Source: Rhodocyclaceae bacterium
GTDB lineage: Bacteria; Pseudomonadota; Gammaproteobacteria; Burkholderiales; Ga0077523
Assembly (NCBI GenBank): GCA_020248405.1
Contig: JADCHQ010000023.1
Span: 5,579-69,578 of the forward strand
Reading direction: 5' to 3'
DNA: 64,000 bases
In this document: piece after piece, positions 7,187 through 28,426 of the stretch
Position numbering within the stretch: position 1 is the first letter of the stretch
How the letters are laid out: the number at the start of each line of letters is the position of its first letter
The notes under the pieces: generated by a model
Seen by the model: only the letters and a program-made list of their open reading frames with translations
The model's database searches: none
What the model was told of the DNA's origin: nothing
Position numbers and translations under genes: made by a program

Positions 7187-7538
7187 GGTGACCTGGAGCC
7201 TGGCTAGTCCGGAAGTGACATGCGGTAGAAAGCAAAACCTCCAAACCTTGAGGTTCTTCCCGCGTTTGCCCGAGATTTTGGAAAAACTTGTTCCAGAAGA
7301 AGTGTACCGCCAGTTATCCAGATTTCGGCGAGTTTTGAAGCCGGGCGGTCGGGGTTGACGGCTTCGGCTGGACCTTTTCAAGGAATGGCGCCTGGCTATT
7401 CCCGGCGCTCCAGGATGGATCTCGCCCTGGCTGCGCGCTGCGGGCGCCGCGAGGGGTGGTGGCCATGGTGCAGCGCACAGACCGGAGTGATCGCGCCCGG
7501 CGCAGGCGGCCGGCCAGCAGACCCCAAGGCCGCTGCAA

Positions 7539-7551
7539 GTTGTCTGACAAC
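7539..7551. promoter_or_regulatory. Candidate GntR-family operator, GTTGTC-T-GACAAC
   Basis: A perfect 6+1+6 palindrome matching the generic GntR/FadR operator pattern (GT-Nx-AC core). It lies 25 bp upstream of the GntR-family gene start. Confidence 0.45.
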
Positions 7552-7575
7552 CGATATCCGGCTATTCTGCGCGGC

Positions 7576-8298
7576 ATGAAGCCCTTGGACCTGCCCTTCG
7601 TGGGCCGCAAGCAGCGCTTATCCGACCGGGTGGCCGACGAACTGCGCGCCGCCATCACCGAGCGGCGCCTGCCGCCCGGCAGCCGTCTGCCCACCGAGGC
7701 GGCGCTGTCGCAGAGCTTCGGCGTGAGCCGTCCGGTGGTGCGCGAGGCCGTGTCGCGCCTCGCCTCCGAGGGGCTGGTGGAGTCGCACCAAGGCTCCGGG
7801 CTGTTTGTCCCCGAGCACCGGCCGCTCACGCCCCTGCGGCTCGACCCGAGGGTGCACGAATCCAGCTCTACCCTGGAAGAGCTCTACGAACTGCGCCGGG
7901 CCGTTGAAGCCGAAATCGCCGCGCTCGCCGCCCTGCGCCGCAGCCGTGCGCAACTGACGGCTATCGGCCGGGCACTTGCCGCCGTGGAGGCCGCGCGCGA
8001 CGCGGGCTCCGACGGCGTGGAGGAAGACCTGTCCTTCCACCAGGCCATCGCCGAGGCCTGCGGCAACCGCCTGCTGCAGTCCACCTGGGCCTTCCTGGGC
8101 CAGTACCTGCGCGGCGCCATCCGCATCACCCACTCCAACGAATCACGCTCGCCCGCCTTCGAAGCCGCGGTGCACGCCGAGCACGCGGCCATTGCCGAGG
8201 CCATCCGCCTGCGCCAGCCCGAGAACGCGCGCGCCGCCGTGCTGGCCCACCTGGAAGGCGCCGCATCGCGCCTGGCGTGCGCCGCCCGCACCCACTGA
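7576..8298 (+). CDS. GntR family transcriptional regulator (FadR/FCD subfamily)
   Basis: N-terminal winged HTH (LPTEAALSQSFGVSRPVVREAVSRLASEGLVES) and a C-terminal all-helical FCD-like domain. The ATG at 7576 is the start inside the longer ORF. Confidence 0.85.
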   Translation: MKPLDLPFVGRKQRLSDRVADELRAAITERRLPPGSRLPTEAALSQSFGVSRPVVREAVSRLASEGLVESHQGSGLFVPEHRPLTPLRLDPRVHESSSTLEELYELRRAVEAEIAALAALRRSRAQLTAIGRALAAVEAARDAGSDGVEEDLSFHQAIAEACGNRLLQSTWAFLGQYLRGAIRITHSNESRSPAFEAAVHAEHAAIAEAIRLRQPENARAAVLAHLEGAASRLACAARTH

Positions 8299-8334
8299 CC
8301 CCGACCCCCGATCCAACCCCAGCGGAGCAATACC

Positions 8335-9171
8335 ATGCCCGGATCCATCCTCACCGCCCTGCAGCGCGCCGACTACGAGCGCGACGGCTACGTCACCGTG
8401 CGCAAGCTCTTCGACGCCGAGGAGATCGCCATCCTGCGCAGCGCCATCGAGCAGGACCCGGCCCTGCGCAACCGCCTCTACGACCGCAACGACGCCTCCG
8501 GCAAGGCCACGCGCATGGCCACGTGGAATCATCCGGGCGACAGCGTCTACGGTCTGGCGGCGCGCTCGCACCGCATCGTCGACACCATGGAGGAGCTGCT
8601 GGGCGGCGAGGTGTACCACTACCACTCCAAGCTCACCGCCAAGGAGCCCCTCGAGGGCGGGGCGTGGGAGTGGCACCAGGACTACGGCTACTGGTATCAC
8701 AACGGCTGCGTGTTCCCTTACATGGCCAGCGTCATGGTGGCGCTCGACCGCAGCACGCGCGAGAACGGCTGCCTGCAGGTGGTGAAGGGCTCGCACCACT
8801 GCGGGCGCATCGAGCACGGCGTCTTGCCCGGCGAGCAGGTGGGGGCCGACCCGAAGCGCGTGGAGGAGATCCTCAAGCGCATGCCCGTGGAGTACGCGGA
8901 GCTCGATCCTGGCGACGGTATCTTCTTCCACAGCAACGTGCTACACCGCTCCGACCAGAACCGCTCCGCCCATCGCCGCTGGACCGTGATCCACTGCTAC
9001 AACGCGGCCCGCAACAACCCCTACCTGGAGCACCATCACCCCTTCTATACGCCGCTGCACAAGGTGGACGACGACGCCATCAAGCGCGCCGGCGTCACCT
9101 TCGCGGCCTCGGAAGAAGAGTTCCGCGAGAAGTCGGCCAATCCGCCGGAGCTGAAGCGGCGCATCGCCTGA
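8335..9171 (+). CDS. Phytanoyl-CoA dioxygenase (PhyH) family Fe(II)/2-oxoglutarate oxygenase
   Basis: The 278-aa protein contains WEWHQDYGYW (the H-x-D iron ligands) and FFHSNVLHRS (distal His/Arg). A GGAG RBS precedes the start. Confidence 0.75.
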   Translation: MPGSILTALQRADYERDGYVTVRKLFDAEEIAILRSAIEQDPALRNRLYDRNDASGKATRMATWNHPGDSVYGLAARSHRIVDTMEELLGGEVYHYHSKLTAKEPLEGGAWEWHQDYGYWYHNGCVFPYMASVMVALDRSTRENGCLQVVKGSHHCGRIEHGVLPGEQVGADPKRVEEILKRMPVEYAELDPGDGIFFHSNVLHRSDQNRSAHRRWTVIHCYNAARNNPYLEHHHPFYTPLHKVDDDAIKRAGVTFAASEEEFREKSANPPELKRRIA

Positions 9172-9226
9172 GGGCGCGGCGCCGCCCGGCGGCCCGCTCC
9201 AGCCCGCCCGGAAGCCACCCAGGACG

Positions 9227-10828
9227 ATGCGTGCCACCCTCCTGCTCATGACCTTGCTGGCCGCGGCCGTGGCGCCCGGTACGGAAGCCCGATCCATGTC
9301 CGATTGCGTGCCGTTTTCGAAAGTGCAGGGGCAACTGCTTGCCAGCGGCAGGCCGGTGCCGGGGCAGGAGGTCCTGCAGCACTGGAACTGGCTGGGCAGC
9401 AAGTCCGGCGACGCCCGCGCCGTCACCGATGCCGAGGGACGGTTCACGTTCCCCGAAGTGCGCCTGTCCTGCCGCGGCCCGCAACACGACGCCGATGTCG
9501 TCCAGACCATCGAGGTCCGGCACCACGGGCGCACGGTACAGCTCTGGAGCGTCGCCCGGAAGGGAATGGAGGCCAACGCAGAGCTCGGCGGAGAGCCCAT
9601 CGTGCTGGTGGCGGACCTGGACCAGGAACCCCGCGAGGTGAGTCTCCCCGTGGGCCCCGAGGCACTGGCAGTCGTCTCGGGCGTGGCGCAGTTCCGCCAC
9701 CCCTACCTCGCACGCTGGGAGCGGACCCGCGCTCAGGTGACGCCGGAGGGCGTGGCCAGGGCGCTCGCGGCCTACCTGGCCTCGCCCGGGGCGGCGAAGC
9801 GGCTCGCGACCTTCTTCCCCGCTGTGGGACGCGAACGGTCGAGGGTCGCGAAGGTCACGGGAGTGTCGGCCTTGGACCTCACCGACGGCATGCTCTTCGC
9901 CGACGGGGAGGCCGGTCGCTACGCAGTTCTCGAAGCGCCCCGATACGCCGGCTTCACGGCTCGCGCCCGGGTAAGCGTGGCGCTCACTTCAGGCGAGACG
10001 CTCACGGCGGATTTCTTCGCGTGGAAGCTGCTCCTGCCGCTTGACGACTCCGGGCGGCCGCTCGGCGACCTTCGTGTGAGCGGCACCTGGGAACTGGACA
10101 CCCGGTCATGGATCAAGTCGCGCGCAGACGCGCTGCTGGTGCCCGAGCGGGTAGCCGCGCTGGTGCGCGCCCGGCTCCCGCTCGACCCGGGCGCGCCGCT
10201 CCTGGCGGCGCTCGGGGCGAAGCCACGCGCCGCGCTGACGGTGAGCGAGGCAGTGGCGCAGGAGGCGCGGGTAGTCGGCGTGAAGGACACCACCGCCACG
10301 CTGCGCTTCCTGGGCCCGGTCCGCCTCCAGGTGGCAGGCCGCGACGAGCGCGTGCTCGTGGATGCCTCTCTGGCGGTACCGCTGGCGTCGCTGGCCGAGG
10401 CCGAGTACCGCCTCGCTCCCGGGCGGGAGCCGCCCACGTACCGGCCGATCCCCTTCGCGGTAACGCTGTCCACGGACAAGTCCGCCTACACGGCCGGCGA
10501 ACCCATCACCCTGCGCTTCGTGGTGCGCAACACCATGGGGACGCCGCAGAGCTTTCTCCTGTGGCACACCCCCTTCGCCAGGTTCGACAACAACTACCTT
10601 CACATCGCGCTGGCGGGCGGCGGGGAGCCGGTCGGCTACACGGGCGCTCTCGTGTCCCGCGCCCCGCCAGCCGCCGGCGACTATCGCGCGCTGCGCCCGG
10701 GCGAAAGCGCCGCGGCGGAGATCGAGATCACCCAAGCCTACCCCGTGCGGGCGAGGGGGGAGTATGTGCTGCGCTACAGCCCCCTGGGATCGCTGCTCGC
10801 CAACGAGGCGCGCTTCACGATCCGCTGA
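9227..10828 (+). CDS. Secreted multi-domain protein of unknown function
   Basis: Signal peptide MRATLLLMTLLAAAVAPGTEA. An N-terminal segment resembles a carboxypeptidase-regulatory-like beta-sandwich (GRPVPGQEV...DAEGRFTFPEV). The C-terminal ~110 aa look like an Ig-like module (TDKSAYTAGEPITLRFVVRN...RPGESAAAEIEITQAY). I recognise no catalytic motif. Confidence 0.6.
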   Translation: MRATLLLMTLLAAAVAPGTEARSMSDCVPFSKVQGQLLASGRPVPGQEVLQHWNWLGSKSGDARAVTDAEGRFTFPEVRLSCRGPQHDADVVQTIEVRHHGRTVQLWSVARKGMEANAELGGEPIVLVADLDQEPREVSLPVGPEALAVVSGVAQFRHPYLARWERTRAQVTPEGVARALAAYLASPGAAKRLATFFPAVGRERSRVAKVTGVSALDLTDGMLFADGEAGRYAVLEAPRYAGFTARARVSVALTSGETLTADFFAWKLLLPLDDSGRPLGDLRVSGTWELDTRSWIKSRADALLVPERVAALVRARLPLDPGAPLLAALGAKPRAALTVSEAVAQEARVVGVKDTTATLRFLGPVRLQVAGRDERVLVDASLAVPLASLAEAEYRLAPGREPPTYRPIPFAVTLSTDKSAYTAGEPITLRFVVRNTMGTPQSFLLWHTPFARFDNNYLHIALAGGGEPVGYTGALVSRAPPAAGDYRALRPGESAAAEIEITQAYPVRARGEYVLRYSPLGSLLANEARFTIR

Positions 10829-11195
10829 GAGCGGCACCGCCGCGCCCTAGAAGCGGGGGATTCACGGAGATTTCACCGTTACCGCCTCGTGGCTTCACAA
10901 GCAAACCCCACGCTGTGGTCCGTCTCGTTCAAGGCGCTGTCAGTGGCGCGCCTCGCCGGGGCAGCCCCAGCGGGTGGCCACCCGCCGATAACCTCGATCT
11001 GCCAACCCGGGCTGACCCCGGCAGCAGACGCCGCCCGCTAGGCGTTTCCCGCGCACGATGCCCAATGCACCAGTGGTAGGATCAAGTGACCTCACGCGCA
11101 TGTCATCGCGACATGCCGCCTCGCCCCGAGGCAGATGCGCCGGGGCGCACGCGGGCTGACCGGGGCATGCATGCAACCTCAACGGAGATGACCAC

Positions 11196-12821
11196 ATGAC
11201 ACGCGCAATGCGGTGGATCGCCGTGGCAACCGCACTGGGGGCGGTGGTGGCGCTCGCCGGCGCATGGCACACGGGCTGGGCGCAATACGCCGGCGTCACC
11301 GTGCCCACGTCGGCCAACCTTGGCCGGCCGGACGCGCTGCTGCTGACGCGAAGCGTGGCCACGCTGCCTCGCGACGCCCTCAAGCTGCCACTGGCGCGGG
11401 AGCTGCTCACCGAAGATTTCCTGTTCTATTACCAGTCCCATCCTGATGTGCTCGGCATCGAGGGGGCGATGCGGCGCATCTCCTTCGAGCGCTCCCTGGG
11501 CTGGTCGGATGAACTCGTGCGCTGGTTGCTCGATCGCCCCGCGCAGATCGCCCTGTGGCGCGACGACAAGGGCGCGTTGCGCCACTGGGCGCTGGCCACG
11601 GAGCGCAAGGACCTGGGCCGCCTCTTCGAGGCGCTGGCGGTGGTGGCGGCGGCGGACGGTCAAGTGTTCTCGGCGGGCACGATTGCCGCCGGCGACGGTG
11701 CCATCGCCCTCCACACCCTGGCGCTGCGCACCAACCGCACGCTGCTGCTGGCTTCCCAGGGCGACCGGGTGGTGGTGTTTTCGGACCCCGGGCTGGTGCT
11801 CGATGCGCAGCGCGTTCCACGCGGGGAATCGGCCGACGTGCTTCGGAGGCTGCTGGCGGATGCCGCGACTCCGTCGTCCACGCCGTGGCAGCAGAGCTTC
11901 CGTGCCGGAGACCTCGGTTCGGCCCACAGTCTGCTGCTGCGGGCCTCGGCGCTGGGTTTTGGCTACGAGCGCTTCTTCCCTGCCCTGGTGGCCACACGGT
12001 TCGATTTCGGCGACGGCGCGTGGCGCTCGCAGGTGCTCGTGGACGACTCCGCTCCCGGTGCGGCGCTGGTGGCGGATCGCCGCTCCTGGGAGGCGGTGCC
12101 AATCCGGCCCGCCGCCTGCGCCCAGTTGCCGATCCACTGGGGCGCCGCCGACGCGACCCTTCGCGCAGCCAAATCGCTGGACACCTCCCAGGCAGAGGCA
12201 CTGGCCGGTGGCTTTGACGGGCCGGTGCTGGTGTGCTGGTACGCCAAGAGCGGACTTCTTGCCCCGCTGTTCGTGGCCAGCGTGGACGCGAACCGCCCGC
12301 CCGGCGATGCGGCCATCGCCGCGCTGGCGGACTGGGCACTGCTCGGCGAGCCCTTGATCAACGACGAGGCCGCCCGGGCCGGGCCCGGCGTGCGCCGCTG
12401 GCAGCACGCCATCGAGGTGCCGTTCGCCTCGGCCAACCAACAGAAGCGGCCAGTGGCGGGCGAGCGGAAAGTCACGGTGGCGCGCAGCGGCCGCTACCTG
12501 CTGTTTTCGCCCGATCCCGGTCGCGTGGACGCAGCCCTCGAAGTGCTCGCCCGGCGGCGGCCGAGCCTGGCCGCGGCCCTGCCGGAGACCGACCCTCTCC
12601 TCGCGCTGGTGACCCCTTCGGCGCTGTCGGCCATGGCGCGCGACGAAATCACGCGGATGCTACCCGTGGGCGACGAGCCGGTGCTGCGGCCCGTGGCCGA
12701 ACGCACCCTGCTGCCGCGCGTGGCCGCCGCCGGCCGGCACCCGGCCCACCGGGCGGTGCTCCTGCCTGCGGCGGACGGTAACGGCTGGCGCAGCCTCGAC
12801 TGGCAGGCATTGCCCGATTGA
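11196..12821 (+). CDS. DUF2138 family protein (E. coli YfaA-like), first gene of the alpha-2-macroglobulin operon
   Basis: 541 aa with an N-terminal anchor or signal ([19 protein letters not shown]). Its size and position match yfaA in the yfaA-yfaT-yfaS-yfaQ-yfaP arrangement. The family assignment comes from memory of the operon, not from a search. Confidence 0.6.
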
Positions 12822-13465
12822 AACCCCTGATCGCAGGCGCATTGATGCTGCTCGTGTCCAGCCGCGCCGGTGCCGCTCCCGGCGGCGCCCTGGCGCCGGA
12901 GGAAATGCTCGACGCCAGCCAGTCGCGCGCTTTCCGCGCCTGGATGGTGCGCATCGTCGACCAGCAGATCGCGGCCGGGCCCTCGAACCGGTGGGTGCAT
13001 CGCGACTGCGCCGGCCTGGTGCGTTACGCGGTGCACGAGACCCTGCGGGAGCACGATGCCGCGTGGCGCCGCGCAACGGGCATCAGCGCCCCCGCGCCGC
13101 CGCCGCTGCAACTCTCCGATCATCAGCGCGCGTTGCGCAACCGCTGGCAACGCGCGGATGGCAGCCGGGCCGCCTACGTGGGGGCGCTCGAGCTGGTGCA
13201 GGAAAATACCACCCTCGTATCCCGCGGCATCGAGCAGGCCCAGCCGGGCGACTTGCTGTTCTTCGACCAGGGCTACGACCAGCACCTCATGATCTGGGCG
13301 GGCCGCTACGTGGCCTATCACACCGGATACGCCGACGCGCGCGATAACGGTCTGCGCGCCGTCGCTCCCCAGGAACTCCTCAAGTGGAAGGACAGCCGAT
13401 GGCATCCCGTCCCCGACAATCCCAATTTCCTCGGCGTCTTCCGGCTGCGATTCCTGGCGCGCTGA
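12818..13465 (+). CDS. DUF1175 family protein (YfaT/MagC-like) with an NlpC/P60-like Cys/His signature
   Basis: The TTG start overlaps the upstream stop (TTGA). It has a signal peptide, [11 protein letters not shown] (Cys codon 13007-13009) and [17 protein letters not shown], which resemble the catalytic Cys and His strands of NlpC/P60 papain-like hydrolases. Confidence 0.6.
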
Positions 13466-16400
13466 TCGCGCTTCTCGCGCTGGCGCTGCTGGCCGCGGCG
13501 CCCACCCTGCGCGCGGACTACACGCCGAGCGGCTACCAGCCGCTGCCGGGCGAGGCCTTCTTCCTGCTCTCCGACAAGTCCTTCGGCAGCACCGATGAGG
13601 CTCAGGTGCGGCTGGAGCTGGTCTCGGGCAGGGGCGGCCTCGCGGGGATCGAGGCCTACGGCGGCGTGGACGTGGCCCTGTATCGGGTGGCGGATCCCAT
13701 CGGTTTCCTGAAGCGCCAGAAAAACCTGCGCCGCATCCGCGCCGCGGCACCGGCAATCGCCGAAGGCCCCGGCAACGCCATCGCCCACTTGTGGGACCGC
13801 TGGGCCCAGGCCAGCCGCGCCGCCTGGCGGGCGATCTTCTCGGCCGAGGCGCGCAGCGCCGTCACGGCGCAGGCGCCCGGCACGGCCACGCCCCAGGGGC
13901 TGCACGCCCCAACCCCCTTCACGCCCACGCGCCAGTTCGCGCCACTGAAGGGCTTTGACCCCGTGCGTCAGTTCCGCTATCCGGTGCATGCCGCAAAGGC
14001 CATCGCGCCGCCGCCTGAGGTGGCGCTGGCCGGCAGCAGCAGCGGCTTCATCGCGCCTGTGGAGGGCAACGTGAACATCCCGCTTGGCCGCCTCGCGCCG
14101 GGCCTGTATCTGGTGGAGGCCGTCGCTGGCGGTTATCGCGCCACCACCGTGGTGTTCGTGTCCGACACCGTGGCGATCACCAAGACCGCCGCCTCGGAGA
14201 TGGTGGTGTGGACCGCGCAGCGCGACAAGGGCGCGCCGGTGCGCAACGTGGAGGTGGCGTGGACCGACGGCGTGGGTGTGCTGGCCACGGCACGCACCGA
14301 CGCAACCGGCGTGGCGCGCCTCGCCAAGCCCGCGCCGGAGCGCAGTTTCGTGTTCGGCGCAGACCCCTCCGGCGGCGTGTTCATCTCGGAGAATTTCTAC
14401 TACGACAGCGAGATCTACAACGCCAAGATCTACGCCGTCACCGACCGGCCGCTCTACCGCCCGGGCGACGAGGTGTTCGTGAAGTTCGTGGGCCGCGAAT
14501 TCAAGTCGGCACGCGAATCCGTGCCGGTGCCCGCCGGCGACATCGATCTCACGGTGTTCGACCCGGCCGGGGCGCCGGTGGCGCGGCAACGCCTGGCGCT
14601 AGACCCTGCGCGCGGCGGCGACACGAGCTTCCGCCTGCCGGACAACGCCGGCGCGGGCGGCTACGAGTTGCGCTTCGACTGGCGCGGCAACGGCTACGGC
14701 GCCGCCTTCCGCGTGGCGCAGTACGACAAACCCCACTTCGAAATCACGCTGGTTCCATCGAAGCCGAACTTCCGCGCCAACGATCCCGTGCGCGGCAAGC
14801 TGCAGCTCCATTACCCTGACGGCAAGCCCGTGGTGGATGCCGACATCCAGTTGTCGGTGCGCGCCCAGCAACTGACCATGCTGGACGGCGATTTCCGCTA
14901 CGGCGGCCAGTTCCCCGTGAAGCTCACCGCCGAGTCCTTGCGCAGCGACGCCCGCGGCGAGGCGGCCTTCGAGTTGCCCCCCGCCACCCAGCCCAGCCGC
15001 TACGTCATCACCGCCCTGGCCACCGACGGCGCGGCCTTCCGCGTGAAAACCACCCGCGAGCTGCTGATCGAGCGCAGCCTCGCCGCCTACAGCCTCAAGG
15101 CGCCGCGGCGGTTCAGCGCGCCCGGCGAGACGGTGGCCTTCGCCATCGCGGCGGTGACGCCCGGACCGTCGGCCCCGGCGCAGTGGGAATGGATCCGGCT
15201 TGAAGACCGCGGCCAGGCCTCGGGCCCCATGCCCAAGGGCGACGCGCTGGAGATCGTCTTCGGCCAGCCGGGTACCTACACCGTTCAGTTGCGCGACGGC
15301 CGCAACAACATCATTGGCGGCACCTCCCACTGGGTGAGCGGCGGCAGCGCCAAGGCCCCGGCGGGCAGCATCGAGATCGTCGGTGCGCGCGAGCGCTACC
15401 GCGCGGGCGACACGGCCGAGCTGCTGGTGACCTTTCCCGAGCCCACCGAGAACGCCCTGCTCACGCTGGAGCGCGACCGCATCGAGAAAACCGGCCTCCT
15501 GCGGGGCGCGGTCTGGGCCGATGCCACGCGCCTGTCGCCCACCCAGTGGCGCATTCGCGTGCCGGTGGACGAGGCCTTCGCGCCGAACATCACCTTCTCG
15601 GTGGCGGCGGTGCGCAATGGCGATTACGTGTTCCAGAACCACGGCCTGCAGGTGGAGCAACCGCGCATCGAGCTGAGCTTCAAGCCGGCCCGGACGGTCT
15701 ACGCGCCCGGCGAGCGGGTGGAGGTGGAAGTGCTCGCAACCCTGGCGGGCAAGCCCGTGCAGGCAACCCTCGCGGTGGGTGTGGTGGACGAGATGATCTA
15801 CGTGCTGCAACCCGAGATCGCACCGGACATCCACGACTTCTTCTTCCACTTCCGCCGCAACAACGTGCGCACCTCCTCGAGCCTGGCCTTCATCGGCTAC
15901 GACCTGGCCGAGAACCGCAGCAAGGGCGCCCCCGAGGCGCGCAGCGTGCAGCAGCGCCGCGAAAAGCTGCTGGAGCGCCCGCGCCGCGACGAGCAGGACA
16001 CGGCGTACTGGAACGGCAGCTTGCGCACCGACGCCAGCGGCATCGCACGGTTCGCCTTCACCATGCCCGATGCCCTCACGCGCTGGCGTGTCACCGGCCG
16101 CGCCTTCGATGACCGGGGCAACGTGGGACAGAACACGGCCTGGGTTCGCGCCGACAAGCCCCTGTACGTGAAGTGGACGAGCCCCACCTGGATGCGCCGC
16201 GGCGATGCCCCAGTGGCTTCCCTGGCCATCTTCAACCAGACCACCACGCAGCAGCAGGCCGAACTCGCCATCGAAGGGATAGCGGGCCGGCGCGCCAGCA
16301 AGCTCTCGCTCAAGCCCGGCGCCAACTATGTGTCCGAGGCATTGCGGCCGCTGGGAGGCGATGTGAACCTGCAGGTCGTGCTCACGCAGTCGGGCAAGGT

Positions 16401-17988
16401 GGTGGACGCGCTGGACACCCGGATGCGCCAGTTGCCCTCCGGCTGGACGAGCTCCCAGAGCCTGGCGGTGGACCTGAAGGACGGCCAGGCGCCGCTTGCG
16501 CTGCCGGCCAGCGCCCGGGACGTGCGGGTGCGGTTCATGCCCTCCGCGCAGTCGCACTTCGCCCGCATCCTGGATGACCTGCTGGACTATCCCTACGGCT
16601 GCGTGGAGCAGACCGCCAGCCGGATGATTCCCAACGCCATCGCCCTGCGCGTGATCGCGCCGCAGGACCGCCTTGCCGCCGACCGTCTGCGGCAGCAACT
16701 GAACGGCAGCCGCCTGCGGCTGGCCTACATGGCAGGAGAGAAAGGCCGCTTCACCTGGTGGGGCCCGCACACCGTGGGCGACCCCTGGCTCACGCCCTAC
16801 GCCTGGTATGCCGACTGGATGGCAAGCCGCGCCATCGGCGTCGATCTACCCCGGGAGCACTGGGAAAAGCTTCTCGACGCCTACGCGGAGGAAGGCTACA
16901 AGCTGCCGCCCGTGCAGCGCGCGTTGGTGCTGCACTGGATGCAGCGCATTGGCCTGCCGGTGAAGGAGCAGACCCAGGCGTTCCTGGAAGCCCTCGGCAA
17001 GGGTGCCCCGCCTGCCAGGGGACCGGCGGCGCCGCTGCCGGCGGCAACCAGTGCGATCCTCGCCGCGCCGGAATCGCCGCTGTCCGCAGCGCTGGCCGTG
17101 GCGCTGGCGGACCTGCTGGCCAGGGATGCCGGCGTGGCGCTTCCGAAAGAACTGGCTGCCAGACGCGACGCGGCCTTCATGGCGCTGGACGGCAGCAACC
17201 TGCCCGCGGCCCGGGCGCTGCTGCTGCTCTCGGGCCGGCTTCCCGCCACCGAGGCGCCGGCCATCCTGGCGGCGGTGCGCAGAGAGATGCCCACCATGGA
17301 GCGGGCCATCACCCTGGCATGGATCGATCAGGCGCTGCAGGGCAAGCTGGGCGGCAACGGCAACCCCATGCCGGTGCTCGCCGCGCCGTGGGTGGCGCAA
17401 GCCAGCCCCAGCGGCCAGCAGGAGTGGCGCTGGAGCGGCACGGACCCGGCGCCGAAGTCGCTGCGCATCGCCGGGCCGCACCGGTCCATGGCGGCCATGG
17501 TCCACTTCTCCGGCCCGCAGACCGTGCAGCGGGATAGCTCCGTGCGGGTCACACGCACGCTCCATCGGGTCCGCAAGGCTGGTGAAGCCAGTTTTGCCCT
17601 GGAACCCGTGGGCGCCACGGCGGCGCTCGGCACCAGCGACCTGTACCTGGACGAAATCGTGCTCGATCCCGGCAAGTCCACCGTGCGCTACGGACTGGTG
17701 GAGGTGCCGCTGCCGCCCGGGGCGGCGGTGGAGAGCAGCACCTGGGGAATCAACCTGGCGGAGGCGCAAGCCTCCGAGGCCACGCCTCTCGAGGCCGCGC
17801 GCCATCAGGCCACCGACTTCGGTTATGCCATTGCGGTGGAACCGGTGAGCGGGCGCACGGTGCTGCGCCATCTGGTGCGCTTCTCGCAGAAGGGGCGCTA
17901 CGTGCTGCCGCCCGCTCGGCTGACGCGCATGTACGCCCCGGGCATGGACGCCTTCGAGTCTTCCAGCCGGGTGGTGGAGGTCCGCTGA
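13399..17988 (+). CDS. Bacterial alpha-2-macroglobulin family protein (YfaS/MagD type), about 1529 aa
   Basis: The ATG at 13399 is preceded by GGAAGGA; the ORF track starts at a GTG at 13384. Type I signal peptide ([21 protein letters not shown]) with no lipobox Cys. The thioester-type motif is [13 protein letters not shown] (CVEQ = 16600-16611). Size and operon context fit YfaS. Confidence 0.85.
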
Positions 17989-19622
17989 TGAGGCGCCTGG
18001 CCCGGCTGCTTGCGGCGGCGGCCCTCGGCATCGCGCCGGCCCTGGCCACCGCTGGCGATGTGGCCGTGGCCTGGCTGGCGGGCGCAACGCTGAAGACCCA
18101 CGGCAGCGTCCCCTCACAGGCCCCGCTGGGCAGCCTGTGGAAGCTGTTCGTCTACGCTTACGCGGCTCACCAGCGCCTGGAGGCGCCGCCCTACCGTTGC
18201 GGCGTCGCGGCCATGGCGGGCGAGGAGTTCTGCTGCGAGCCTGGCGCCACGGTGACGCTCGATACCGCGCTGGCGCGCTCCTGCGGGCCGGCATTCGCGC
18301 CCCGGCGGCTTGGGATCGACGCAGTAGCGTGGCGGGAATTCTGGTCCGCCCGCATGGGGCAGGACCCCGCGTGGCTCACCAACCTGGATCGGCTAGGGCC
18401 CGACACCGAAGCGCCGGTGGTGGAAATCCTGCAGACCCTGGCAGCCTTTTCCCCCGAGGCGCGGCAGGCGGCGATGCAGGCGCTGCTGCCCGTCATGACC
18501 GCGGGCTTCGGCCGCGATGCCCTGCCGGAACTGGGCGGCTCGCTGCGCGTGAAGACCTTCACGTGGTCGCTGCCCGCCACCCCGGACCGGCGCTGGGGCG
18601 GCGCCGCGGGCTGGCGCGTGGACGGCCTGCCGGTGTGGTTCGCCGCCGACGGCGCCAGCCGCCAGGTGCTGCGAGATCACGCCGCCACGCTGGCGCGGGT
18701 GCTGCCGCCGCTCACAAAAGCGCCGGCCGACGAACCGTGCGTGGTGGTGAACTTCTTCACGCGCTATCCCGTGGCGGGCGTCGATCGCCTTCCGGAGGGC
18801 TTGCCCGCGACGGAGGGTACGCTGGCGGGCCGTTTCCGCGTGCGCTTCGAAAACGGCCAGGTGCTGGTGTTCGAGAGCACGGGCGATCTGGCGCTTGCAA
18901 CCGCGGCGGACCGGCCGCGCATCACCGGCCGGCTGGGGCTCACCGAGTACGTGGCCCGCGTCGTGGATCGCGAAGCCGACGCAACCGAAACACAGGCCGC
19001 CCGGGCGCTGGCCATCGTGGCCCGCAGCTGGCTCTTGAGCAACGCGCGCTTCGAGAGCGGCTGTTATCGCGTGGAGGACAGTTCGCGCGCGCAGCGCGTC
19101 AGCGCCAACCCGGCCACGCCCAGGGCCCGCGCGGTGACGCTGTTCGGCGACGGCCTGATTCTCGCCGGCGCCTCGCCCGGCTATCGCCTGGAGACCACCC
19201 TGCCGGGAGTGCTGTCGTGGCGCCACGCGGCGCAGCAGGGACGCGACGGCGCGCGCGTTGACGCCATCCTCGCCGAGGCATTTCCGGGCAGCGCGCTGGC
19301 CACGGCGCATGGCGGAGGCGACTGCCGCCGCCTGCCGGAGGTGGAGCGCTGGCTGGCGCGGGCCGTGCCGCGCTGGCACATCTTGCTGGGCGCCGAGGCC
19401 GGGTTCGAACCCCCCGCCGGCATGCCCGCGGCGTGCGCGCTCGACCGTGGCAACCCGTACGCCGACACTGCCCGCCTGCGCCTCTACGTGCGCGGCATCC
19501 GCACGGCGGATGAGCGCGTCGCGGTGGCGCACGAGTATCTGCACATGGCGTTTCGCTTCCACCCGCGCGGCCAGGACGAGCGCTTCGTGGAACGGCTGGC
19601 TCGTCAACTGGAGGCACCATGA
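17988..19622 (+). CDS. DUF2300 family protein (YfaQ/MagE-like) with a SpoIID-like segment and C-terminal HExxH
   Basis: The start overlaps the A2M stop (TGATG). It has a signal peptide. The segment LTEYVARVVDREADATETQAARALAIVARSWLL resembles the SpoIID/LytB signature. The C-terminal VAVAHEYLHMAF contains HEYLH (19530-19544). Confidence 0.6.
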   Translation: MRRLARLLAAAALGIAPALATAGDVAVAWLAGATLKTHGSVPSQAPLGSLWKLFVYAYAAHQRLEAPPYRCGVAAMAGEEFCCEPGATVTLDTALARSCGPAFAPRRLGIDAVAWREFWSARMGQDPAWLTNLDRLGPDTEAPVVEILQTLAAFSPEARQAAMQALLPVMTAGFGRDALPELGGSLRVKTFTWSLPATPDRRWGGAAGWRVDGLPVWFAADGASRQVLRDHAATLARVLPPLTKAPADEPCVVVNFFTRYPVAGVDRLPEGLPATEGTLAGRFRVRFENGQVLVFESTGDLALATAADRPRITGRLGLTEYVARVVDREADATETQAARALAIVARSWLLSNARFESGCYRVEDSSRAQRVSANPATPRARAVTLFGDGLILAGASPGYRLETTLPGVLSWRHAAQQGRDGARVDAILAEAFPGSALATAHGGGDCRRLPEVERWLARAVPRWHILLGAEAGFEPPAGMPAACALDRGNPYADTARLRLYVRGIRTADERVAVAHEYLHMAFRFHPRGQDERFVERLARQLEAP

Positions 19623-20404
19623 GATTGCCCGCTCTCGCCGCCTGTCTTGCAAGCGCCACCCTGTCGTGCGGCGCCCTCGCCCAAGTGTCCCTGGACACGC
19701 CACGGGGCGGCTGGCGGCACCAAGCGCCGTCCGGCGGCAGCACCTTTGTCCAGTCGATCAACTATCCCGCGTCGAGCGTCAACACCTCGGGCGCCGATGC
19801 CGCCGCGCTGATCAGCGGGCGGGTGGCCAGCGCCAGCAAGAAGCGCGTGGCCACGCTGGTGGTCAACGGCGTGGCCACGCCCTTGATGCTCGACGAGACG
19901 GGCGCCTTTTCCCGTCCCTATGCCTTTGGCCGGGGCTCGAACAGCGTGGAGATCCGGCAGGGCGCCACCCGCGTGCGCCGCCAGTTCTTCGACGCCGCCC
20001 CGCTTTCGGCGCCCGTGGAACTGCGGGTTGTGCTGTCCTGGGACACCGATGCCACCGATGTGGATCTGCACGTGGTGTCACCACTGGGTGAACACTCCTG
20101 GTACGGCAGCCGCGAAACCCCCTCGGGCGGCGCGCTGGACGTGGACGTGACCACGGGCTTCGGCCCGGAGATCTTCGCGCACCCCAAGCCCCCCCAGGGA
20201 ACGTGGCAGGTCTGGGTGAATTACTACGGCGGCAGGGCATCCGGATCCGACGACGGCCAGGAGGGCGGGCCCGCCCCGGTGACCATCGCCCAGGTGACTG
20301 TGATCAGCCGCGAGAACACGCCCCACGAACGCCAGCAGAGCTTCCGCGTGCCGCTGCGCCGCCCGGGCGAACTCACCCTCATCCGCTCCTTCTCCTACCC
20401 ATGA
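19619..20404 (+). CDS. DUF2135 family protein (YfaP/MagF-like), copy 1
   Basis: ATGA overlap with the upstream gene. It has a signal peptide and the conserved block VLSWDTDATDVDLHVVSPLGEH...GGALDVDVTTGFGPEIF...VNYYGG. Confidence 0.6.
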   Translation: MRLPALAACLASATLSCGALAQVSLDTPRGGWRHQAPSGGSTFVQSINYPASSVNTSGADAAALISGRVASASKKRVATLVVNGVATPLMLDETGAFSRPYAFGRGSNSVEIRQGATRVRRQFFDAAPLSAPVELRVVLSWDTDATDVDLHVVSPLGEHSWYGSRETPSGGALDVDVTTGFGPEIFAHPKPPQGTWQVWVNYYGGRASGSDDGQEGGPAPVTIAQVTVISRENTPHERQQSFRVPLRRPGELTLIRSFSYP

Positions 20405-21189
20405 AGACCCTCGCCGCATTCCTGAGCGCCTGCTGCCTGCCTGCCATCGCCTGGGGCCAGTCGTCCATTTCCCTCGAAACCCCGCGCGGCGGCTGGAACC
20501 AGCGCGGCCTGGCCGACCGCAGCGACGAGGCGGCGGTGGCCTATCCACCAAACCTCATCGACCGCGGCATGCAGCGCCGGCGCACGCTGATTCGCGGCGC
20601 CGTGCTGCCGTCGAAGCCCGGCACGCCCTCCACCCTCATCGTCAATGGCAACCCCATGCCCCTGTACACCGGCGAGGACGGCAGCTTCGCCCGCCCCTAC
20701 GCCATGGCGCCCGGGTCCAACAGCGTGGAGGTGCGCTCGGCCGACCGATCGGCGCGCCGCCGCGTGCAGGTCTACGAAGCCAACCGCGACACCCCGCGCG
20801 CCCAGCTCCGGATCGTGCTCGGCTGGGACGATGGCCAGGCCGAGGTGGACCTGCATGTCATCACCCCGGACGGGCAGCACGCCTTCTGGGCGCGCCCGGT
20901 GCTCTCCGACGGCGGCGGCCTGGACGTGGACAGCGTCGATGGCCCCGGGCCGGAGATGTTCACCATGACATCCCCGCCCCGCGGCAATTATCACGTGTAC
21001 GTGAACTACTGGGGCAACTTCGGCGCGGGCGGCTACCACTTCGACGAGTCGACCCGGGAGCGCGAGGTCATCACCGCCACGGTGACCTTCGTGCTGCACG
21101 AAAACACACCCTCGGAGAAGCGCGAAACCTTCCGTATTCCCCTGCGCAAGATCGGCGATCTCGGGCTCGTGAAGAGCTTCCTGTTCTGA
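20401..21189 (+). CDS. DUF2135 family protein (YfaP/MagF-like), copy 2 (tandem paralog)
   Basis: The ATG at 20401 overlaps the upstream stop (ATGA). It has signal peptide MKTLAAFLSACCLPAIAWG. It is collinear with copy 1 (SLETPRGGW, GSNSVEVR, VLGWDDGQAEVDLHVITPDGQH, GGGLDVDSVDGPGPEMF, VNYWGN, ENTPSEKRETFRIPLR). Confidence 0.6.
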   Translation: MKTLAAFLSACCLPAIAWGQSSISLETPRGGWNQRGLADRSDEAAVAYPPNLIDRGMQRRRTLIRGAVLPSKPGTPSTLIVNGNPMPLYTGEDGSFARPYAMAPGSNSVEVRSADRSARRRVQVYEANRDTPRAQLRIVLGWDDGQAEVDLHVITPDGQHAFWARPVLSDGGGLDVDSVDGPGPEMFTMTSPPRGNYHVYVNYWGNFGAGGYHFDESTREREVITATVTFVLHENTPSEKRETFRIPLRKIGDLGLVKSFLF

Positions 21190-21250
21190 TACCGGCCTAA
21201 CCGTGGCGGCCGTGCCCCGCAGCCGCAAGGCCGGGCCGGTGGCCGCAGGC

Positions 21251-22000
21251 TCAGCCCGCCGCAGGCGCCCCGATCACCACCCCTGCCCCTTCCAGCGCGG
21301 TGCGCACCGCCCGCGCCATGGCCACGGCCCCCGGCGTGTCGCCGTGCACGCAGATGGTCCCCGCGGAGAGCCTGACCGTGGTTCCATCCACCGCCCTCAC
21401 CCGGCCCTCCTGTGCCATGCCCAAAGCCCGCGCCGCCACGGCCGCGGCGTCGTGCAGCACGGCCCCCGGCTCGCTGCGCGGCAGCAGCGTTGCGTCGGCG
21501 CGATAGGCGCGGTCGGCGAAGGCCTCCTCCACGGTGAACAGCCCCGCCTCGCGGCTGGCGCGCGCCAGGGCGCTGCCGGCCAGGGCGTAGAAGGCGAGGC
21601 CGGGGTCGAACTCGCGCACCGCGGCAGCCACGGCATGGGCCAGGGCGGGCTCGCGCGCCGCGCGGTTGTAGAGGGCGCCGTGGGCCTTCACGTGGCGCAG
21701 GCTGATGCTCTCCCGCCGGGCAACGGCGGCGATGGCCTCCAGCTGCCGCAGCACCTGCTCGCGCACGGTGGCGGGCGGCAGGTCGAGCTCGCGCCGGCCA
21801 AAGTGCTCGCGATCCTCGAAGGACGGATGGGCCCCCGCCGCCACGCCGCGCGCGGCCGCGGCGCGCAGGGTGCGCGCCATGGTGCCGGTATCGCCAGCAT
21901 GGCCGCCGCAGGCGATGTTCGCGGAGCTCACGAGATCGAGCAGCGCCTCGTCATCGCCCATGCCCTCGCCCAGATCGGCGTTGAGGTCCACACCCTTCAC
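21251..22000 (-). CDS. pxpA: 5-oxoprolinase subunit A (LamB/YcsF family)
   Basis: The N-terminus VDLNADLGEG...ANIACGGHAGD is the LamB/YcsF signature. It is the last gene of a B-C-A arrangement, as in E. coli ybgJKL. Confidence 0.85.
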   Translation of the reverse strand: MKGVDLNADLGEGMGDDEALLDLVSSANIACGGHAGDTGTMARTLRAAAARGVAAGAHPSFEDREHFGRRELDLPPATVREQVLRQLEAIAAVARRESISLRHVKAHGALYNRAAREPALAHAVAAAVREFDPGLAFYALAGSALARASREAGLFTVEEAFADRAYRADATLLPRSEPGAVLHDAAAVAARALGMAQEGRVRAVDGTTVRLSAGTICVHGDTPGAVAMARAVRTALEGAGVVIGAPAAG

Positions 22001-22998
22001 GCCAGTTGCGCGCGCAGCGCCTCGGCAGTGCGCGCGAGTTGCCGCTCGCGCGCGGCCAGCAGCGCGTGGCTTTCAAGAACGGTGATGAGCTCGAAACGCA
22101 ACTGGTCTCCAGGGGCGAGCTGGGCCATGAGCGGCAGATCCACTGCCGCCACCACGGCCAGCACCGGATAGCCGCCGGTGGTGGCGCGATCGGCCATGAG
22201 CACGATGGGCTGGCCGGAGGGCGGCACCTGCACCGCGCCCGTGGCCATGCCCTCGGAGAGCACATCGCCGCCGCGCGGCGCTGCCAGAGCGAGGCCTTCC
22301 AGGCGATAGCCCATGCGGTCGGAATCGAGCAGCACCCGGTAGGGCACGCCCGCGAACTGCTCGCGCGTCTTGAGGGTGAAGGTCTGCCAGTGGCGGCCGG
22401 GTACGGCGCGGATCACCTGACCTTCCCGGGGCATGGGCACTTCCGTGTGCGCCACCGACCAGGACGGATAGGCCACGCCACGGCGGGCGCGGGACAGCAG
22501 CCGGACCCAGCGCGGCGTGTGGGCCTCCTCGGGCGAGCGCAGGGGGATCACGTCGCCACGGCGCAGGGCGCGGCCGCGGAAGCCGCCAAAACCGCCCCGC
22601 TGGGCAGTGGACCGGCTGCCCATCACCGGCGGCAGGTCGAAGCCGCCGGCCATGGCCAGGTAGGCGCGGGCGCCGCGGGTGGCACGCCCGAACTCGAGCC
22701 TTGCCCCGGCTGGCACCCGTGCCGGCCGCCATGATGGCAGCGGCTGGCCATCTACCCTGGCATCCATGTCCGCGCCGCACACGGCGATCACGGCGTCGCA
22801 GCCCAGGCGCAGCGTGGGGCCCGAGAGGGTCAGTTCCAGCGTGGCATCGTCCTCGGCATTGCCCACCAGGGCGTTAGCCATGCGATGGGAAAGCTCGTCC
22901 ATGGCGCCGTTCACCATCACACCCAGGTGCTGGAAGCCGTGCCGGCCCAGGTCCTGCACCGTGGTCAGCAAGCCGGCCCGCTCCACCCGAAGGGACAT
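21997..22998 (-). CDS. pxpC: 5-oxoprolinase subunit C (allophanate hydrolase subunit 2 / KipA-like)
   Basis: MSLRVERAGLLTTVQDLGRHGFQHLGV..GAMD is the typical AHS2 N-terminus. 333 aa. It overlaps pxpA by 4 nt. Confidence 0.85.
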   Translation of the reverse strand: MSLRVERAGLLTTVQDLGRHGFQHLGVMVNGAMDELSHRMANALVGNAEDDATLELTLSGPTLRLGCDAVIAVCGADMDARVDGQPLPSWRPARVPAGARLEFGRATRGARAYLAMAGGFDLPPVMGSRSTAQRGGFGGFRGRALRRGDVIPLRSPEEAHTPRWVRLLSRARRGVAYPSWSVAHTEVPMPREGQVIRAVPGRHWQTFTLKTREQFAGVPYRVLLDSDRMGYRLEGLALAAPRGGDVLSEGMATGAVQVPPSGQPIVLMADRATTGGYPVLAVVAAVDLPLMAQLAPGDQLRFELITVLESHALLAARERQLARTAEALRAQLA

Positions 22999-25729: not shown

Positions 25730-28426
25730 CTAGCCGTGCGCGGCTCGGCGGCGCGCCCATGACGCCCTCGCCGCCCGCTTCTCCAGCTCCACCACCACAA
25801 ACACCACCGCCGACAGGGCAAGGGCCAGCCGCCAGGCCTCGGCCCGGGGCGACTCGGTGGCGAACACCGCCTGGAACGGCGCCCACCAGGTGAAGGCTGC
25901 CTGCAACAGCAGCAGCGCACCCACGGCCGCGGGCACGGCCGGGTTGTCGTGCAGCCGCAGGCGCGGCAGCCCGGAATCGGGCGAGCGGATGTTGAACAGG
26001 TAGGCTAGCTGGGCCAGCACCAGAGCGTTCACCGCCGCCGTGCGGGCCGCGGCTTCGGACGCGCCGCGTGCCAGTTCCCACTGGTGCAGCCACAGCACGC
26101 CCCCGGCCACCAGCACCGCCACCAGCAGCGTGCGCCACACCAGCGCCGCCGGCAGCAGGGGCTCGCGCGGATCACGCGGCCGCTGGCGCATGACGCCAGG
26201 CTCGTGCGGCTCGAAGGCCAGGGCCAGCGAAAGCGTCACCGAGATCACCATGTTCACCCACAGCACCTGCGCGGCGCTGAGGGGCAGGGGCAGGCCCAGG
26301 AAAATCGCGCCCGCCATGGAGGCGGCCTGGGCACCGTTGGTGGGCAGCACATAAGCAATGGCCTTGCGGATGTTGGCGTACACCGTACGCCCCTCCTCCA
26401 CCGCGGCGGCGATGGTGGCGAAGTCGTCGTCGGCCAGCACCACGGCCGCGGCCTCGCGCGCCGCGGCCGTGCCCTTGAGCCCCATGGCCACGCCCACATC
26501 GGCGCGCTTGAGAGCCGGAGCGTCGTTGACGCCGTCGCCGGTCATGGCCACCACCTCGCCTTGCTCCTGGAGCGCCGCCACGATGCGCAGCTTGTGGGCT
26601 GGCGCGGCGCGGGCGAACACCGCCGCATCGCGCACCAGCGCCGGCAGCTCCTGATCGCTGGCCGCCTCCACCTCGGCGCCGCTCACGGCGCGGGTGGCGC
26701 CCTCCAGGCCCAGCTCCCGGGCGATGGCCAGCGCCGTGGCGGCGTGATCGCCGGTGATCATCTTCACGCTGATGCCGGCCTCCTGGCAGCGCGCCACCGC
26801 CGCCACGGCCGCCGCGCGGGGCGGGTCGATCAGACCCACCAGCCCCACCAGCACCAGTTCGCGCAGCGGCTGCGCGGCCACGAAGCGCGCCTCGGGCGCG
26901 AGCCGCGCCGCCACTGCGATTACCCGCATGCCAGCGGCGGCCAGTTCCTCTGCCGCGGCGTGCCAGCGCGCCCCATCCAGGGGCGCCTCGCCCCCCGCCT
27001 CCAGCTGGCGGTCACACAGCGCCAGCACCGCCTCGGGCGCGCCTTTCAAGGCGAGCAGCGTCTCGCCCCCGTCGTCGTGAATCGTGGCCATCCAGCGCCG
27101 CTCGGCATCGAAGGGGAGCGCATCGGTGCGCGGCGCCTGGGAGCGCTCCGCGGCCGGGTCCACCCCGGCCTTGAGGGCGAAGGCCACCAGCGCGGCCTCC
27201 AGCGGATCACCCTCGGGCCGCCAATCGCCGCCCTCGGGCCCCACGTCGGCGTCGTTGCACAGCACCGCCGCACGCACGAGCGCACCCAGGGTGGGATGCG
27301 TGCCAGCGTCGGCGGCAACGCCCGCCGCGCTCACCTCGCCGTCGGGCGAGTAGCCATGACCGGTGATCTCGAAAGCTCCCTCGGCGGTCACCACCCGCGC
27401 CACCATCATCTGGTTCGCCGTCAGGGTGCCGGTCTTGTCGCTGCAGATCACCGTGACCGAGCCGAGCGTTTCCACCGAGGGCAGATGGCGCACGATGGCC
27501 CTGCGCCGGGCCATGCGCCGTACGCCGATGGCCAGCGCGATGGTCACGATGGCGGGCAGCCCCTCGGGAATGGCGGCCACGGCAATGCCTACCACCGCCA
27601 GGAACGCATCGCCCGTTTCAAGGCCCCGCGCCAGCGCCACGGCGAACACCAGCGCGGCCGCGCCCAGAATGGCGACGGTGAGCTGCCGGCCGAACTGCGC
27701 CAGCCGGCGCGTGAGTGGCGTTTCCAGCGCTGTGACGCCCGCCACCATCCCCGACAGCCGGCCCAGCTCCGTGGCCGATCCCGTGGCCACCACCACACCC
27801 ACGCCCGTACCGCGGGTGACCAGCGTGCCCGACCACGCCATGCCGGCGCGCTCGGCCATGGGCGTCCCGGGCGCAGCCGCCGCGGTGGTCTTGTCCACGG
27901 GCACCGACTCGCCGGTGAGCGCCGATTCGTCCACCGACAGGCCGCGCACCTCCATCAGGCGCAGGTCGGCGGGCACACGCTCGCCAGCCTCCAGCCACAC
28001 CAGGTCGCCGCGCACCAGGGTTGCCGCATCCAGCGTGAGCCGCCGGCCATCGCGGATGGCCACGGCCACCGGCGCCAGCATGGCGCGGATCGCCCCCAGC
28101 GCCCGCTCGGCGCGCGCCTCCTGCACGAAGCCGATGAGGGCGTTCAGCACGATCACCGCGAAGATCACGGCGGCATCGGTGACATGCCCCAGGGCCAGCA
28201 CCACGGCGCCCGCCGCCAGCAGCACCATCACCAGCACATCGCGGAATTGAGACAGCAGGCGGCGCAGCCATCCCGCCGAGGCGGTCGCTTCGAGGCGGTT
28301 GGGCCCGTCACGGGCCAGCCGGCGCGCGGCCTCGTGGGCCGTCAGGCCCTGGGCATGGGTGCCGGCGCGTTCCAGCACCTCGGGAAAATCGACGCAGTGC
28401 CAGGCGATGCTGCCGGAGGATTCCAT
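25730..28426 (-). CDS. Cation-transporting P-type ATPase (P2-type, Ca2+/Mg2+-like)
   Basis: 898 aa. It has the phosphorylation motif ICSDKTGTLT, the TGES actuator motif (LTGESVP), MITGDH and TGDGVNDAPALKRADVGVAMG. Confidence 0.9.
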   Translation of the reverse strand: MESSGSIAWHCVDFPEVLERAGTHAQGLTAHEAARRLARDGPNRLEATASAGWLRRLLSQFRDVLVMVLLAAGAVVLALGHVTDAAVIFAVIVLNALIGFVQEARAERALGAIRAMLAPVAVAIRDGRRLTLDAATLVRGDLVWLEAGERVPADLRLMEVRGLSVDESALTGESVPVDKTTAAAAPGTPMAERAGMAWSGTLVTRGTGVGVVVATGSATELGRLSGMVAGVTALETPLTRRLAQFGRQLTVAILGAAALVFAVALARGLETGDAFLAVVGIAVAAIPEGLPAIVTIALAIGVRRMARRRAIVRHLPSVETLGSVTVICSDKTGTLTANQMMVARVVTAEGAFEITGHGYSPDGEVSAAGVAADAGTHPTLGALVRAAVLCNDADVGPEGGDWRPEGDPLEAALVAFALKAGVDPAAERSQAPRTDALPFDAERRWMATIHDDGGETLLALKGAPEAVLALCDRQLEAGGEAPLDGARWHAAAEELAAAGMRVIAVAARLAPEARFVAAQPLRELVLVGLVGLIDPPRAAAVAAVARCQEAGISVKMITGDHAATALAIARELGLEGATRAVSGAEVEAASDQELPALVRDAAVFARAAPAHKLRIVAALQEQGEVVAMTGDGVNDAPALKRADVGVAMGLKGTAAAREAAAVVLADDDFATIAAAVEEGRTVYANIRKAIAYVLPTNGAQAASMAGAIFLGLPLPLSAAQVLWVNMVISVTLSLALAFEPHEPGVMRQRPRDPREPLLPAALVWRTLLVAVLVAGGVLWLHQWELARGASEAAARTAAVNALVLAQLAYLFNIRSPDSGLPRLRLHDNPAVPAAVGALLLLQAAFTWWAPFQAVFATESPRAEAWRLALALSAVVFVVVELEKRAARASWARRRAAHG

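Follow-up and report, generated by a model that had tools for sequence, protein, structure and literature searches.

Type I bacterial alpha-2-macroglobulins (A2Ms) are lipoproteins that carry a lipobox Cys and are linked to pbpC, while the operon-encoded Type II proteins are stated, in papers from the Dessen/Attree groups, to lack the CXEQ thioester motif (PMC3735191; PMC5764988), and the absence of this motif has served as the definition of the type (PMC5764988). A stretch of 64,000 nucleotides from a Rhodocyclaceae bacterium, referred to here as the window, holds an A2M gene that raises a question about this division: its product bears CVEQ, lies in a yfa/mag operon, and has no lipobox. Such a protein could be a rare combination of the two types, a carrier of a relic motif, or a normal representative of an operon type that retains its thioester. 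The evidence assembled below makes it highly probable that the protein is an ordinary YfaS-type (operon-encoded, "Type II") bacterial A2M, encoded in a complete six-gene yfa/mag operon.

The motif, its gene and its operon

The reading frame at 13384-17988 of the + strand is open from a GTG at 13384, and within its translation the bases 16600-16611 (tgc gtg gag cag) encode CVEQ as residues 1073-1076, numbered from GTG 13384. The gene likely starts at the ATG at 13399, since an SD-like GGAAGGA stands 5' of this codon and the resulting product has the 1529 aa of the NCBI entry P0001, to which it is 100% identical and which bears the name [quoted passage not shown]. In a phmmer alignment, every column of the motif region pairs with YPYGCLEQTAS/TTS, the sequence of two thioester proteins of solved structure (E. 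coli YfhM/ECAM and Salmonella A2M), and CVEQ is therefore not a chance tetrapeptide; the intact CxEQ claimed by the sequence-only reading is borne out by the bases, the translation, and this column match. The features of the gene are as follows.

13399..17988, + strand: yfaS/magD-type alpha-2-macroglobulin gene, 1529 aa, with Pfam MG2, A2M_BRD, A2M, bMG3, bMG10, and a weak TED
13399..13515, + strand: predicted Sec signal peptide with cleavage before DY, no Cys; cleavage site read by eye
15910..15954, + strand: probable bait region, residues ~843-857, just 5' of the conserved LERPRRD
16546..17334, + strand: thioester domain (TED), all-helical, residues ~1055-1317, from DSSP of the AlphaFold2 (AF2) model, a weak Pfam TED_complement, and phmmer matches to the TED of 4ziu/4u48
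16588..16599, + strand: YPYG with Tyr1069 and Tyr1071, the phmmer equivalents of Sa-A2M Tyr1175/Tyr1177
16600..16611, + strand: CVEQ thioester motif with Cys1073 and Gln1076, aligned with CLEQ of ECAM/Sa-A2M
17929..17934, + strand: Met1516-Tyr1517 in TRMYAPG of the C-terminal MG domain, matched in a second phmmer alignment domain to esMYaP of ECAM/Sa-A2M and equivalent to Sa-A2M Met1625/Tyr1626

Cys1073 is the sole Cys of the protein, so that a lipobox is impossible; the claimed lack of a lipobox Cys is thereby upheld. The type I signal peptide is read by eye from the sequence. The first 67 nt of the signal-peptide region overlap the 3' end of the upstream DUF1175 gene. A twin-arginine-like QSQFPRRL within the signal peptide was considered as a Tat motif and rejected, because E. 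coli has QSQFHWHL at the same place; the conservation around it is attributable to the overlapping DUF1175 reading frame. The bait stretch is the most variable part of its local alignment (~3 bits of entropy), and its location is equivalent to that of the MagD bait, ANRSERG 847-853.

Codon-position GC marks a run of + strand genes around the A2M gene, and Pfam identifies among them DUF2138, DUF1175, A2M, DUF2300, and two DUF2135 genes, in agreement with the multi-gene operon context that had been read from the sequence. The partners of the A2M gene, with the Mag-to-DUF naming taken from PMC3735191 Table 2, are listed below.

11196..12821, + strand: yfaA/magB homolog, DUF2138, COG4685 (Pfam DUF2138 2e-102; NCBIfam PRK11410), with a hydrophobic N-terminal segment
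12818..13465, + strand: yfaT/magC homolog, DUF1175, NlpC/P60-like (Pfam DUF1175 4e-54; weak NLPC_P60), with the conserved DCAGLVR and HLM motifs present
17988..19622, + strand: yfaQ/magE homolog, tandem DUF2300 and a SpoIID-like stretch (Pfam)
19619..20404, + strand: yfaP/magA-magF-type paralog 1, DUF2135 (Pfam, translation)
20401..21189, + strand: yfaP/magA-magF-type paralog 2, DUF2135 (Pfam), starting at an ATGA overlap

Together with the A2M gene, these correspond to MagB-MagC-MagD-MagE and two MagA/MagF paralogs, that is, the full six-protein Mag complement according to the COG table of PMC3735191. The present Pfam name of DUF1175 is MagC. Paralog 2 (20401-21189) begins with MKTLAAFLSAC/C, in which LSAC is lipobox-like. 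A scan for promoters and terminators over 8200-22600 gave nothing above shuffled expectation, and the operon boundaries are consequently based on gene spacing and overlaps. The DUF6795 gene directly upstream (9227-10828) was also considered as an operon member and was rejected, with tblastn matches in 0 of 88 comparison loci.

The core order of the operon is that of E. coli yfaA-yfaT-yfaS-yfaQ-yfaP, and the likeness to the E. coli system extends to the protein, which shares with YfaS ~47% identity (measured against the intact P0142, ~1030 residues), the length class, a signal peptide without lipobox, and a conserved bait-flanking LERPRR; moreover, the yfaT/yfaS overlap in E. coli is 67 nt, equal to the DUF1175/A2M overlap in the window. 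In E. coli K-12, yfaS is a pseudogene. E. coli has one yfaP copy, whereas the window has two. Similarly, the Mag system of P. aeruginosa and the window operon comprise the same six families (COG4676 twice, COG4685, COG3234, COG2373, and COG5445) with the core order B-C-D-E in common, and MagD resembles the window protein in having a signal peptide without being a lipoprotein, in the position of its bait (residues ~845-855), and in the fragments on either side of it (~91-93 and ~74 kDa). The arrangement differs in that magA, a YfaP paralog, stands at the 5' end of the mag operon, whereas both paralogs stand at the 3' end in the window.

No gene for a pbpC/PBP1C-type transglycosylase/transpeptidase was found in a Pfam scan of 20 window ORFs, among them the larger ones close to the operon. 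This excludes pbpC beside the operon; the earlier claim that no pbpC lies in the window stands for the scanned ORFs and not for the whole 64 kb, where codon bias supports about two dozen further ORFs, several of them 450-610 aa long.

The thioester pocket and the predicted fold

The residues that shield a bacterial A2M thioester have been described for Sa-A2M, in which they are Tyr1175 and Tyr1177 of the TED (the Y-P-Y of YPYGC) and Met1625 and Tyr1626 of the C-terminal MG domain (Fyfe et al., PMC4498604). All four are present in the window protein, as Tyr1069, Tyr1071, Met1516, and Tyr1517; it thus shares both the shielding residues and CxEQ within YPYGCxEQT with the Type I proteins ECAM/YfhM (4ziq, 4rtd, 5a42) and Sa-A2M (4u48). 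Their conservation was tabulated over 237 distinct YfaS-type sequences, made up of 212 that keep CxEQ and 25 that have lost it. Position -4 holds Tyr or Phe in 211 of the 212 keepers, and Tyr in 16 of the 25 losers; position -2 is aromatic in every keeper (212/212). The C-terminal Met is found in 211/212 keepers and 8/25 losers, and the C-terminal Tyr in 212/212 and 24/25, respectively. The alignment of pocket residues with YfhM/ECAM and YfaS-type homologs, which the sequence-only reading had put forward as a check, thus returned near-invariance among the sequences that keep CxEQ. A pocket that is conserved mainly while CxEQ is kept fits a functional, shielded thioester, with selection acting only as long as the thioester exists, and this argues, indirectly, for a working thioester in the window protein.

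The predicted structure points in the same direction. An AF2 model covering residues 335-1534, for which 45 homologs were used, reaches a mean pLDDT of 84.4 and a pTM of 0.75; it contains a disordered, low-pLDDT segment at residues 825-858, which spans the presumed bait, and DSSP assigns 12 helices to model positions 721-983 (the TED), and CVEQ lies where one of these helices starts. The best Foldseek matches are native ECAM 5a42 (TMq 0.61) and native Sa-A2M 4u48 (0.59), with E values of ~1e-50 to 1e-46 for the ECAM/Sa-A2M matches, whereas the protease-activated forms reach only ~0.35. The modelled overall fold is hence like that of the native Type I forms (TMq ~0.6), at ~16% identity over the structural alignment.

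A mechanism can be proposed on this basis. The protein would be exported by Sec, after which signal peptidase I would remove the signal peptide, with no lipidation to follow. By analogy with the Pseudomonas Mag complex, the operon partners, including a membrane-anchored DUF2138 (MagB-like) protein, may hold it at the inner membrane and peptidoglycan. In the native closed state, Cys1073 and Gln1076 would form an internal beta-cysteinyl-gamma-glutamyl thioester, presumably shielded by Tyr1069 and Tyr1071 from the TED and by Met1516 and Tyr1517 from the C-terminal MG domain. Cleavage of the exposed bait (~residues 843-857) by a protease, with predicted fragments of ~93 and ~75 kDa as for MagD, would displace the TED, and the thioester could then react with a nucleophile of the protease to give covalent trapping, as in ECAM and Sa-A2M. 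For the first and last of these steps, the basis is what has been shown for MagD and for ECAM/Sa-A2M, and in the Rhodocyclaceae bacterium itself the formation of a thioester, the covalent trapping of a protease, and the assembly of a complex are to be taken as inferred.

The main competitor to this account regards CxEQ as vestigial, the thioester being either unformed or irrelevant, and assumes a MagD-like non-covalent entrapment within the complex. MagD, the only characterised operon-type member, traps proteases non-covalently (PMC5764988); it is reported to have no Cys at all (PMC3735191; PMC5764988) and traps TEV protease without a thioester (PMC5764988), which implies that the Mag complex can function without covalent capture. 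Furthermore, about a dozen losses of the Cys among YfaS-type proteins have left the gene and operon in place, so that the thioester is dispensable in some lineages. However, CxEQ and the four pocket residues are near-invariant over 212 sequences that range from 30 to 100% identity, and the pocket Met decays fast once the Cys is lost, a conditional conservation that a neutral relic would lack; the model, moreover, predicts a native closed fold that would bury the TED against the C-terminal MG domain. A vestigial motif in the window protein is thus an unlikely proposition, and a shielded, functional thioester in an ordinary YfaS-type protein is preferred.

Distribution and ancestry of CxEQ

The frequency of the motif in operon-type A2Ms was approached by several surveys. 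Of the 120 homologs closest to the window protein, which span 48-100% identity and come from Massilia, Duganella, Janthinobacterium, Azonexus, and Gallionella, among others, 105 have CxEQ, as CVEQ in 94 and CIEQ in 11; the remaining 15 have Gly or Ser in place of the Cys or a site that is otherwise degraded. Since the A2M itself should not be selected on, a further survey started from the accessory protein, with a DUF1175 alignment as the query against GTDB species-representative genomes. Of the 80 loci that this returned, 47 of them from Paraburkholderia species, 75 have an A2M ORF directly downstream that spans the site, and in 74 of these 75 operons CxEQ is present: CAEQ in 47 (mostly Paraburkholderia), CVEQ in 20, CLEQ in 4 (Aeromonadaceae), CIEQ in 2, and CTEQ in 1. 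The lone exception is Serratia microhaemolytica, with NIER. An exhaustive HMMER search over cluster representatives at 50% identity gave CxEQ in 55 of the 69 YfaS-type representatives that cover the site, and in 31 of the 41 that are full-length. When the distinct YfaS-type sequences are pooled, 212 out of 237 carry the motif. All of these surveys are centred on relatives of the window protein and draw mostly on Betaproteobacteria.

The operon context of these proteins is equally regular. With the accessory proteins of the window as tblastn queries, the order DUF2138 > DUF1175 > A2M > DUF2300 > YfaP was recovered wherever the contig is long enough, and for CxEQ-bearing homologs the operon was seen directly in Janthinobacterium, in Gallionella, and in one metagenomic relative of 33% identity. 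The next more distant A2M family (~27% identity, motif CxEQTMS) has the motif in all 64 of its 64 representatives, and a MagC-family gene likewise precedes the one representative inspected for its context.

The order of events was addressed with a tree rooted on this ~27%-identity CxEQTMS family. Fitch parsimony on a quick NJ tree, which carries no support values and is used qualitatively, reconstructs CxEQ as the root state and requires 12 changes, most of them independent losses. The residues that replace the Cys differ (Gly, Ser, Asn, Asp, or Thr), and the sequences concerned are scattered among CxEQ-bearing neighbours. The window protein clusters inside the YfaS-type clade. E. coli YfaS (GVIN), Serratia, and P0146 (GAEG, in a mag-ordered operon) form one gammaproteobacterial subclade, the sister of which, P0126, bears CVEQ. 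In E. coli K-12 YfaS the homologous site reads EPWGGVINTGSRLIP, and the motif is absent; the E. coli YfaS thioester site, EPWGGVINTGSRL, has neither the Cys nor the Glu-Gln nor the Tyr at -4, all of which the window protein keeps, and the pocket Met that the window protein also keeps is replaced by Ser (...RSYAP). The MagD of P. aeruginosa, for which there is no recognisable name among the top 150 representatives, is placed only indirectly, from its published bait peptide, the COG table, and the mag-ordered operon around P0146; its bait ANRSERG resembles TNRSERR and GNRSERG of the gammaproteobacterial subclade. Retention of the thioester is accordingly taken as the ancestral and majority state of the operon type, with E. 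coli YfaS and P. aeruginosa MagD as derived losses, and this forms part of the explanation that is considered highly probable as a whole.

These results bear directly on the proposal that the window protein is a rare hybrid, an unusual new variant that joins the covalent trapping of Type I to the Mag accessory complex of Type II. The proposal has an evident origin, in that the published shorthand defines Type II by a missing CXEQ, that E. coli YfaS is without the motif, and that CVEQ, the operon, and the lack of a lipobox do occur together in the window protein. However, this combination is the majority state (74/75 operons, 105/120 homologs, 55/69 representatives), CxEQ is the root state in the NJ tree, and the motif is described as absent only "in many species" in one earlier paper (PMC3328433). 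The sequence-only reading, which had proposed the hybrid, had also stated that a survey in which most operon-type homologs retain CxEQ would make the protein ordinary; most do retain it, and with operon type plus thioester as the rule (212/237 in the pooled set), the notion of an unusual hybrid falls away and is now very improbable. That the protein is really of Type I (YfhM/ECAM-type) and stands by chance beside yfa-like genes is scarcely credible, for although CxEQ and the YPYG and MY pocket residues are common to it, ECAM, and Sa-A2M, it has no lipobox Cys, the scanned ORFs include no pbpC, and its Foldseek identity to ECAM/Sa-A2M is ~16% with a phmmer alignment confined to the thioester region, whereas with E. 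coli YfaS it has 47% identity (P0142) and shares both the gene order and the 67-nt yfaT/yfaS overlap.

The two-type scheme and the meaning of the losses

The definition of Type II by the absence of CXEQ (PMC5764988) would leave the window protein outside the type, as CVEQ is present, and with it 212 of the 237 sampled members; the absence of CXEQ is not valid as a family definition. The equation of Type II with a missing thioester is a sampling artefact that traces back to two derived proteins, YfaS of E. coli and MagD of P. aeruginosa, and the family has lost its thioester repeatedly. The corresponding assumption of the sequence-only reading, that the operon class lacks the thioester, is correct for these two proteins and does not extend to the family. 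Neves et al. 2012, citing Budd 2004, had described the second class as without the motif "in many species" rather than throughout (PMC3328433); to that extent, the lesson of repeated loss is partly anticipated in the literature and is of modest specialist interest. In the literature searched, no description of a thioester-bearing operon-type A2M was found.

A broader reading, which can be held with moderate confidence, is that thioester-competent Yfa/Mag complexes are ancestral and dominant, that covalent capture is normal inside the tethered complex, and that the non-covalent mode of MagD is derived and degenerate, having arisen about a dozen times. If this is true, the rule "Type I = thioester, Type II = no thioester" would be replaced by a distinction based on anchoring and partners, namely lipoprotein plus PBP1C versus the Yfa/Mag complex. 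The gene alone adds little, as it is a typical YfaS-type member that is already annotated at NCBI. Any generalisation of non-covalent trapping calls first for work on a CxEQ-bearing member, for instance from Paraburkholderia, Janthinobacterium, or Rhodocyclaceae, and the repeated natural losses of the Cys constitute a comparative system for the contribution of the thioester in a tethered complex.

Pocket methionine and the thioester cysteine

Within the pooled set of YfaS-type homologs, the decay of the C-terminal pocket Met, equivalent to the thioester-shielding Met1625 of the Salmonella A2M (window 17929-17934), is correlated with loss of the thioester Cys: this Met is retained in 211 of the 212 CxEQ-bearing proteins and in only 8 of the 25 without the Cys. 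The adjacent Tyr persists in 24/25 Cys-less proteins, and the Cys itself has been replaced by at least five different residues (G, S, N, D, and T).

Overlap and pairing of the DUF1175 and A2M genes

The DUF1175 gene lies upstream of the A2M gene, and its last 67 nt (window 13399-13465) also form the start of the A2M gene, an overlap identical in length to that of E. coli K-12 yfaT/yfaS (locus L001, 12337-12403). The N-terminus of the A2M signal peptide carries a conserved QSQF (QSQFPRRL in the window, QSQFHWHL in E. coli), which results when the codons for NPNF(L/I)G(V/I)(F/Y)RL, a conserved sequence at the C-terminus of DUF1175, are read in the +1 frame. The conservation of these overlapping frames between Beta- and Gammaproteobacteria suggests that the two genes are translationally coupled.

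A more distant A2M family (~27% identity), bearing the motif YPYGC[VT]EQTMS, has CxEQ in all 64 representatives. At the one locus examined (L086, 5889-11716), its A2M is directly preceded by a MagC/DUF1175-family gene; hence, the MagC-A2M pairing may be older than the YfaS-type operon.

Composition and surroundings of the operon

The two YfaP/DUF2135 paralogs of the window stand in tandem, linked via an ATGA overlap, and a lipobox-like LSAC|C occurs in the second and is absent from the first:

19619-20404, YfaP/DUF2135 paralog 1
20401-21189, YfaP/DUF2135 paralog 2

E. coli, in contrast, has a single yfaP, and the Pseudomonas counterparts, MagA and MagF, lie at both flanks of the operon. The genes surrounding the operon are as follows:

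5318-7381 (-), GAF-GGDEF-EAL protein
7456-8298, GntR/FCD regulator
8335-9171, PhyH-family dioxygenase
9227-10828, DUF6795 protein, 533 aa
23819-25090 (+), class C beta-lactamase-fold protein (PF00144)
25730-28426 (-), P-type cation ATPase
33485-36580 (-), AcrB-type RND pump

The DUF6795 gene is separated from the downstream operon by a 368-nt gap, with no counterpart adjoining the operon in any of 88 comparison loci; the regulator and dioxygenase genes lie farther upstream, and the remaining neighbours are unrelated to the operon. The PF00144 protein does not represent a PBP1C.

A betaproteobacterial-type yfa operon (DUF1175 identity 69%; A2M motif CIEQ) is borne by a 267-kb contig (L005, CAZOAZ010000002.1) of a MAG labelled 'uncultured Bifidobacterium sp.', and another lies on a contig (L042, DASYTM010000103.1) of a 'Candidatus Methylomirabilota' MAG; both contigs are probably mis-binned or mislabelled rather than carriers of genuine yfa operons of those phyla.
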